NCBI GenBank assembly: GCA_965197425.1
Contig: CBDANC010000013.1
Coordinates: forward strand, 192,001 to 256,000
DNA from: Bdellovibrionales bacterium
GTDB taxonomy: Bacteria; Bdellovibrionota; Bdellovibrionia; Bdellovibrionales; JAUICD01
Direction of reading: 5' to 3'
DNA length: 64,000 nucleotides
The notes beneath the pieces are model-generated. The model saw nothing but the letters and a program-made list of their open reading frames with translations, was not told the origin of the DNA and did no database searches. A program made the translations under genes and the position numbers. Below, piece after piece: positions 16,710-17,084 of this stretch. The first letter of the stretch is position 1, and each line of letters opens with the position of its first letter.

Positions 16710-17084
16710 TTAAGTGTTCTTACATAATTTATAAATGTATCCACCCAGAATATTTGCTTCACTAATTAGCTTTTTGTGATTTATAAGGTCTAATATGGTT
16801 TGTACCTCCCTTAGTGATCCTAGGCTTATTCTGTAGAACTTTCTTCTTTCTTTGTTGCTTGGCTGGTTTAATCGGCTCACGGGATAAAGCTTTATGTTTT
16901 CCAATTGAAATAACCTCTCTGCGTTCGGTTTTGCACTACCTTCAGCTAAGTTTAATACAATACTAGGTATTGCTCTTTGAAATTGGTTCTTGAGTGGTTC
17001 TCTCAAATATAAATTGTTAGCATTATTGTAGAACTGAACTGCCAATTGATAAGCTTTAAAATTTTTCAAAAAAATTTTAATCAA
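16710..17084 (-). CDS. Four-helix-bundle protein (23S rRNA IVP/TIGR02436-like) with an in-frame 22-aa insertion
   Basis: LKNFKAYQLAVQFY...QFQRAIPSIVLNLAEGSAK[PNAERLFQLENIKLYPVSRLNQ]PSNKERRKFYRISLGSLRE; start uncertain (TTG, no clear RBS). Confidence 0.85.
   Translation of the reverse strand: MIKIFLKNFKAYQLAVQFYNNANNLYLREPLKNQFQRAIPSIVLNLAEGSAKPNAERLFQLENIKLYPVSRLNQPSNKERRKFYRISLGSLREVQTILDLINHKKLISEANILGGYIYKLCKNT
16863..16928 (-). mobile_element. 66-bp in-frame repeat element, copy A
   Basis: 58/66 identical to 61139-61204; interrupts the AEGSAK-PS..ER motif. Confidence 0.85.

Follow-up and report, generated by a model that had tools for sequence, protein, structure and literature searches.

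The 64,000-nucleotide stretch of Bdellovibrionales DNA analyzed here, referred to as the window, raises the question of how one 66-bp sequence came to lie within two unrelated genes. An earlier note had found it inside a four-helix-bundle gene (copy A) and near the start of hemB (copy B), and had proposed a mobile coding repeat entering proteins in frame, in the manner of the Rickettsia palindromic elements (RPEs). Both copies were re-found with their coordinates, peptides, 58/66 identity, sense orientation, open frame, and internal stem, and their mutual BLAST match (E 9e-19) is far past chance. The features of the first locus are the following.

16710..17084, minus strand: host of copy A, a four-helix-bundle gene (TIGR02436/PF05635; 48.2 bits against a cut-off of 24)
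16863..16928, minus strand: copy A of the 66-bp module, inserted bare into GSAK^P between its Lys and Pro codons; decayed, with 7 differences from the consensus, and its fold lost
17082..17110, minus strand: what remains of an 8-mer repeat arm of the four-helix-bundle cassette, with an 8-mer resembling the mosaic tail

The genome of the window (G000; 1.6 Mb, 15 contigs, binned, 99% complete) holds many copies beyond these two. A profile search gave 65 matches, 51 of them full copies (from profile position 1–2 to at least 60, score above 60; 37 of 66 nt, 13 of 67, and one of 65); the other 14, being partial or weak, were excluded from all copy counts. While five of the full copies are bare, 46/51 are an optional two-hairpin module within a larger mosaic repeat, positioned in an A-run at the foot of a larger shell, and in 46/51 the next hairpin module follows directly. 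The shell has a fixed head and tail with exchangeable contents and also occurs without the 66-mer; another such shell lacking it lies at 38600-38723 (minus strand) of the window. A same-genus relative available as a single contig (G001) carries a mosaic of its own that resembles this one in head and tail and differs in contents. The 66-mer itself was found in 0/40 relatives, a profile search of ~2.0 Mb of relative DNA gave no copy (best E 1.6), and exact-pattern scans found it in neither the metagenome nor the genome collection, from which the window's own records may have been omitted. The suggested lineage-specific mobile repeat with no mobilizing enzyme in the window is thus borne out. Polymorphism exists at strain level: in a strain from another study (run X4), one entire mosaic of G000 (C13:81098-81333) is absent. 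Among the read joints listed for C13:74500-94400 there was no empty 66-mer site, and a run X4 joint across a second, 65-bp module of a four-helix-bundle gene is possibly paralog-derived.

Other repeats were observed alongside. A separate family, a short palindromic tandem unit (window 48872-48911 and 52726-52765; G000:C13:19434-19588 and 36012-36761), is expanded compared with G001 in coding as well as non-coding DNA. The window further contains an 8-mer tandem-repeat block absent from G001 (40781-41054) and clusters of an ankyrin-like coding repeat of 99-102 bp (26800-36400 and 44100-46600), while G001 harbors two regularly spaced arrays of different repeats with a CRISPR-like look (L056:9339-11489 and L097:4121-5881).

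The gene hosting copy A is one of 19 four-helix-bundle (TIGR02436) paralogs in G000, and in 5/19 the bare 66-mer sits at one identical base (GSAK^P). The 66-bp boundary proposed for this copy is exact, since the 14 empty paralogs of the same genome read straight through the site. Among 156 repeat loci in the genome, these five are the only ones that interrupt a gene whose homology continues on either side; the 65-bp module mentioned above, seen separately, lies inside one of the five filled genes. Three of the inserts are 66/66 identical and share two changes absent from every other copy, their hosts being 78-81% identical. AU tests rejected a clade of the five filled genes (p 2e-54) and of the trio (p 0.0024), tests weakened by the fact that paralogs may recombine, and one filled gene is sister to an empty paralog with a bootstrap of 100. 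Fully identical inserts in hosts that differ this much and form no clade show that these genes acquired the module independently and recently. One insert matches the family consensus exactly, and the window's copy has 7 differences from it; together with the rejected clades and the empty sister, this means that the site was filled several times and at different dates. Most simply, the identical trio spread from paralog to paralog; no co-conversion was seen on its right flank.

The site has a recognizable sequence: the paralogs carrying AAACC are filled in 5/11 cases, those without it in 0/8 (p 0.045). A likeness between site and element, noticed post hoc, points in the same direction. Counted over 18 bases from the site, the five filled genes agree with the beginning of the 67-nt variant at 10, 13, 14, 14, and 15 positions, the window's target being the 10/18 match. 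A likeness of at least 14/18 occurs at 0/5,612 other AAACC sites; seven unrelated non-AAACC sites reach 14-15, and four empty paralogs reach 13/18, three of them with the AAACC core.

Many of the filled genes are damaged beyond the insertion. The start hairpin and ATG are absent from 3/5 filled genes, the window's included, vs 1/14 empty ones (p 0.037); a fourth filled gene has a Ser to Leu change in the conserved SLGSLRE motif, so that 4/5 show decay besides the insert, and two filled genes keep RBS and ATG. In the host of copy A, the RBS hairpin and ATG that most paralogs possess are missing and a near-invariant column has Pro in place of Leu, so that, judged from its sequence, this gene is likely silent. 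As to the 5' ends of the paralogs in general, the RBS lies inside a hairpin, and in four paralogs a clean deletion between A-rich direct repeats has removed both the start hairpin and the ATG.

Members of the same gene family were also hit in relatives, by other elements. Two genomes of another genus in the same family gave 14 (G002) and 19 (G004) four-helix-bundle matches; examination of 13 genes with partial matches and 7 others showed that five in each genome are broken at SLGSL(R)^EVQ by the genome's own, unrelated hairpin repeat. Left junctions are variable, the gene resumes at one right junction in 4/10 cases, and where it resumes the frame is broken; several paralogs have also lost their start, replaced by the repeat end. 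The five interruptions in G002 possibly represent only two events, as the paralogs are nearly identical. G001 has mosaics and no four-helix-bundle gene.

With the insertion sites known, the coding interpretation can be evaluated. The excess of third-position differences, which could be read as coding constraint, is also present where no gene is involved: in 32 copies outside the four-helix-bundle genes (31 non-genic plus hemB), minor alleles fall on the three codon positions as 30/25/52, the same position taking 52/107, and the bias therefore gives no sign of coding selection. The shared Ser-Ala-Lys context is no protein target and turned out to be the reading of the A-run that precedes all 51 copies. 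Entry into unrelated genes in frame does not hold either, considering that 46/51 copies lie inside a mosaic, where only the hemB copy overlaps a conserved gene; and since all five internal insertions share one site in one gene family, their frame counts as a single observation. An RPE-like coding repeat, retained thanks to a tolerated or useful 22-residue peptide, is nevertheless compatible with a coding frame open in 39/51 copies, with the length of 66 in 37/51, and with a peptide that is in frame both in hemB and in a single shell predicted to be translated. An AlphaFold model of the one intact filled paralog also fits, retaining all four helices (mean pLDDT 85.6) and placing the peptide between helices 2 and 3 in a loop of low confidence; its closest folds are 2GSC and 2RLD, with Avd a weak match (a single-sequence PDB search gave nothing, a profile search 2GSC). 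However, the antisense frame is equally often open (39/51), the private changes of the window copy are non-synonymous, and only one internal gene site is used, in genes of which four out of five show further decay. Among the 120 homologs listed, three carry the insert, all of them G000 paralogs, and 117 do not; the longer foreign homologs (11 examined, judged by length) have N-terminal extensions only. In 160 related loci, mostly of Bdellovibrionales or related groups, 150 are plain, and the GSAK^P site is free of an insert in all 160, although the best-80 selection favors intact genes. In sum, we consider a coding repeat very unlikely.

The hemB copy proved to be an event of a different kind, with the following features.

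61069..61083, plus strand: native hemB start (M-M-I-R-P) with the first copy of a 7-bp duplication (61077-61083)
61084..61246, plus strand: 163-bp mosaic unit absent from the G001 ortholog, with the second 7-bp copy at its end (61240-61246)
61087..61102, plus strand: 'start-type' mosaic head with an SD-like GGAG and in-frame ATGs at 61091 and 61100, putative start codons
61129..61231, plus strand: shell stem, with arms at 61129-61137 and 61223-61231, that closes a predicted four-way junction of H1, H2, and a third hairpin at 61205-61220
61139..61204, plus strand: copy B of the 66-bp module, with H1 at 61137-61155 (tandem G.A pairs, C(GCA)G loop) and H2 arms at 61158-61166 and 61192-61200
61100..62191, plus strand: hemB (porphobilinogen synthase) from the mosaic ATG, with a predicted 46-residue N-terminal extension including the 22-residue peptide; the rest is 87% identical to G001

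Compared with the G001 ortholog, which starts M-I-I-R-P-R-R-N, the insertion is not the 66-bp in-frame one assumed before: it measures 163 bp, is not a multiple of 3, and comes with a 7-bp duplication. The boundary given for copy B is sound in the sense that a larger hairpin holds the 66-mer as an optional module and also exists in empty versions. The shell is bordered on each side by AAGACCT, the 7-mer at the end of its own tail, and the native hemB frame now ends after 21 codons. From the shell head, with its GGAG and two in-frame ATGs, a frame reads open into hemB; the shell ATG is likely the new hemB start, and by supplying ribosome site and ATG the shell likely keeps hemB expressed. The single-contig genomes G002 and G004 (90-92% complete) gave no hemB match with this query.

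In total, 21 start-type heads are present in G000. Thirteen of them, at 11 sites and many in the ribosomal-protein cluster, are open to a stop overlapping or adjoining the start of the next gene, or are fused to it; the other eight have no abutting gene, and two of these end after four codons. Head and last tail are in frame at 10/10 of these sites with a standard tail vs 34/88 shells without a gene behind (p 8e-5, computed for 11/11 and post hoc), and the 66-mer is present in 2 of the 11 sites, in frame both times. This arrangement suggests that a mini-ORF couples translation to the next gene at the 11 shell insertions, hemB included. A stricter test of translational bridging across all co-directional gaps was null (4/39 vs 7/121, p 0.46), so the coupling would be limited to this head type; G001 has zero sense-strand mosaics between conserved genes and hence offers no replication. 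Mosaic shells read as next-gene-coupled mini-ORFs occupy at least seven junctions of the ribosomal-protein cluster region (G000:C14 ~146000-174200), and the alignable ones are absent in G001.

Regarding its structure, the module consists of two hairpins, H1 and H2, the latter being the internal stem (ttcaattgg/ccaattgaa) described earlier. Its ends read AA-CCGAC and GAACC-AA; AA precedes 51/51 full copies and ends 47/51. H1 has two short stems around tandem G.A pairs with a GNA or four-base loop, closed by C-G in 18 and T-A in 6 out of 28 distinct H1 sequences. In one H1 variant, an outer-stem C-G became A-T, and the two private changes of the identical trio convert one H1 C-G pair to A-T, representing a compensatory change in the module hairpin. 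When folded as DNA, copy B is moderately stable (z -2.1), copy A shows no fold (z 0.6), and copy B with its shell is predicted to form a four-way junction. Hairpins with C(GNA)G triloops number 56 in 87 kb of repeats vs 54 in the remaining 1,516 kb of G000, a density difference of ~18-fold (~21-fold in G001), with the reservation that repeat copies are not independent. Because such loops are unusually stable in DNA (PMC3201870 and PMC13037366, each in part), the module probably folds as single-stranded DNA. The earlier idea of a spliced RNA insert gained no support: the Rfam scan revealed no known ribozyme fold (two chance-level matches, none near the gathering score), and nothing found favors it. 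Inteins are far larger than 22 residues.

The search for a mobilizing enzyme, extended from the window to whole genomes, gave no standard mobilizer in G000 or G001: Y1, RAYT, reverse transcriptase, rve, IS110, and tyrosine recombinase were without a match in both (profiles PF01797, NF047646, PF00078, PF00665, PF02371, and PF00589 for G000). Neither Y1 nor RAYT matched in G002, and the one Y1 gene of G004 is IS200-type with its own ends. Two further candidates were dismissed, a GIY-YIG nuclease, as the sole G000 match is a UvrC-sized gene, and a single IS4-type DDE gene on C11, whose element ends look unrelated by eye. RecA is present. Rpn/YhgA nuclease matches amount to 1 in G000, 16 in G001, 16 in G002, and 19 in G004, and a lone serine resolvase occurs in exactly these four genomes; both are found in 0/17 other relatives searched. 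Since the four are kin and the scoring of mosaics covered, beyond them, only 66 kb of G003, which yielded no repeat above the threshold, this co-occurrence is a lead only. A duplicated C-terminal piece lies behind the single Rpn gene of G000 (C4:11958-13371). In both G000 and G001, the resolvase is located just upstream of the same dCTP-deaminase-like gene (C12:4669-5388; L087:15237-15929), and no XerC/XerD match was found; it could act in place of Xer.

The data thus comprise a single fixed junction, independent and recent acquisition, and no standard mobilizer. As the best explanation, to which we give about an even chance, the modules in the five paralogs would each have arrived by an independent copying of folded single-stranded DNA, through template switching guided by microhomology or through gene conversion, at an AA(CC) core and with no dedicated transposase. 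The intermediate would be a single strand of the module, the target would be chosen by the AAACC core and its likeness to the element's own 5' end, and spread would proceed from one paralog to the next, insertions surviving because 19 paralogs are redundant. For hemB a separate event is envisaged, in which the whole 163-bp shell with its module may have entered a 7-bp look-alike of its own tail; the 66-bp length and open frame might matter only in such translated shells. Nicks by Rpn may serve as primers: Rpn promotes RecA-independent recombination, and its nicks can prime template switching in E. coli (PMC5350276, in part). Against this priming stand the single Rpn gene of G000 and the description of Rpn as non-specific, and against the copying model as a whole that no intermediate, excision, or new insertion was observed. 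The two filled genes with RBS and ATG and the insert position in a predicted loop also speak against it. Template switching is usually less tidy than the crossover seen here, which always uses the same two bases. A bolder version of the preferred copying, which we regard as speculative and doubtful, is an enzyme-free 66-nt homing hairpin that would pair its 5' end with a look-alike and so spread among the four-helix-bundle paralogs; the repeated strikes in three genomes would reflect an Avd-like protein acting as the missing trans factor of transposase-less palindromic repeats, the repeats would knock out their own helper, and the shell would hide in operons via its own RBS and mini-ORF.

In a rival model, a site-specific recombinase would move small circles of the module and cross over at a 2-bp AA, the lone serine resolvase being the candidate. 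The AA on both sides of nearly all copies and the presence of this gene in exactly the four mosaic-bearing genomes agree with it, and precedent exists in the serine transposases of IS607, which recombine a circle at a matching dinucleotide (PMC4058570, in part). We consider it unlikely, since these carrier genomes are close kin, no element flanks the resolvase, and the outer shell uses a 7-bp core instead of AA. Furthermore, its ordinary domain order, its conserved chromosomal spot, and the lack of a tyrosine recombinase in G000 and G001 make a housekeeping role plausible. A duplex circle of 66 bp is also too small to form easily. That the four-helix-bundle protein is itself part of the hairpin-moving machinery, acting mostly near its own gene while insertions switch genes off, would account for fixed-site strikes by different elements in three genomes (G000 5/19, G002 5/14, G004 5/19) and is in line with its fold, like 2GSC and 2RLD and weakly Avd. 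This is rather improbable, as G001 has a related mosaic without any such gene, mosaics are not enriched near four-helix-bundle genes (4/18 vs 180/1,140 other genes), and we know of no catalytic activity in this family. Chances are slim that a REP/BIME-like family was spread by a HUH (RAYT-type) transposase since lost or unassembled. Modular hairpins and single-strand signatures resemble REP mosaics, and REP families without a flanking transposase are described (PMC3733652, in part), but Y1 and RAYT gave no match in G000, G001, and G002, the sole Y1 gene of G004 belongs to an IS200-type element, neither GTAG nor CGTC tags the module ends, and movement was recent, given an insert identical to the consensus. 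Finally, an assembly artefact pasting a repeat into paralogs, conceivable for a binned genome of 15 contigs with many repeats, has a negligible probability: 83/83 sampled words of window 16500-17300 recur in an independent assembly (two runs, one sample), the insert is connected to flanking DNA of the C12 paralog in contigs of either run, copy A carries private substitutions, and single-contig relatives show the same event type.

In comparison with known systems, the element shares with RPEs that it is short, lineage-restricted, and palindromic with no linked transposase, and that it can sit in frame within a gene, in a predicted surface loop. RPEs enter many unrelated, apparently functional genes (Ogata et al. 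2000; PMC10969869 and PMC3733652, in part), whereas here a gene is interrupted at 5/156 loci, each time at the same base within a single redundant family and mostly in decaying copies; moreover, the 66-mer is a sub-module of a larger mosaic, the hemB unit is a frame-breaking 163 bp, and the terminal CGTC is absent from the 66-mer ends. REP/BIME elements likewise form modular extragenic hairpin arrays of high copy number with single-stranded DNA fold features (PMC3733652, in part). They differ by the GTAG missing at the 66-mer ends (one neighboring module begins AGTAGGC), by the RAYT (Y1) not found in a genome that is 99% complete but in 15 contigs, and by the nested three- and four-way junctions and short target duplications seen here. 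Unlike a MITE, the 66-mer has no terminal inverted repeat, just the AA/AACC direct core. The BOX elements of Streptococcus pneumoniae are modular (boxA-B-C) and alike by layout, with head, exchangeable middle, and tail modules near gene boundaries; unlike in BOX, one middle module here also moves alone into a gene. BOX can contain ORFs (PMC10969869, in part). In integron attC/attI, translation is coupled to the following gene through a short ORF spanning a mobile hairpin (PMC8876359, in part), as suggested here for the 11 shells, but no integron integrase or tyrosine recombinase was found. An IS607-like substrate would match in its dinucleotide (AA left 51/51, right 47/51); the only gene of this kind found is the lone resolvase-type one, whereas IS607-like systems have a circular intermediate and a cognate TnpA with an N-terminal DNA-binding domain. 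The host itself is a member of the ORF-bearing intervening sequences or four-helix-bundle cassettes (TIGR02436, PF05635; 2GSC, 2RLD) and is flanked by short tandem-repeat arms like them, the difference being that a second and unrelated hairpin element repeatedly targets the gene here. The literature within reach, which leaves out most subscription papers, contains no description of the 66-bp element or of repeats homing into four-helix-bundle genes. New are the single-site homing into one family, the striking of the same family by other elements in relatives, and the translation-preserving shell.

These results bear on how transposase-less palindromic repeats (RPE, CGTC-type, BOX) spread and on the function of the four-helix-bundle 'intervening sequence' proteins. 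The system provides an unusually clean test case, with one 66-nt unit, one junction, filled and empty paralogs, datable copies, and two candidate enzymes, complemented by strain polymorphism and by parallel events in two relatives. It further illustrates that an in-frame repeat inside a gene need not signal protein innovation, and that repeats can enter core operons via their own translation start.
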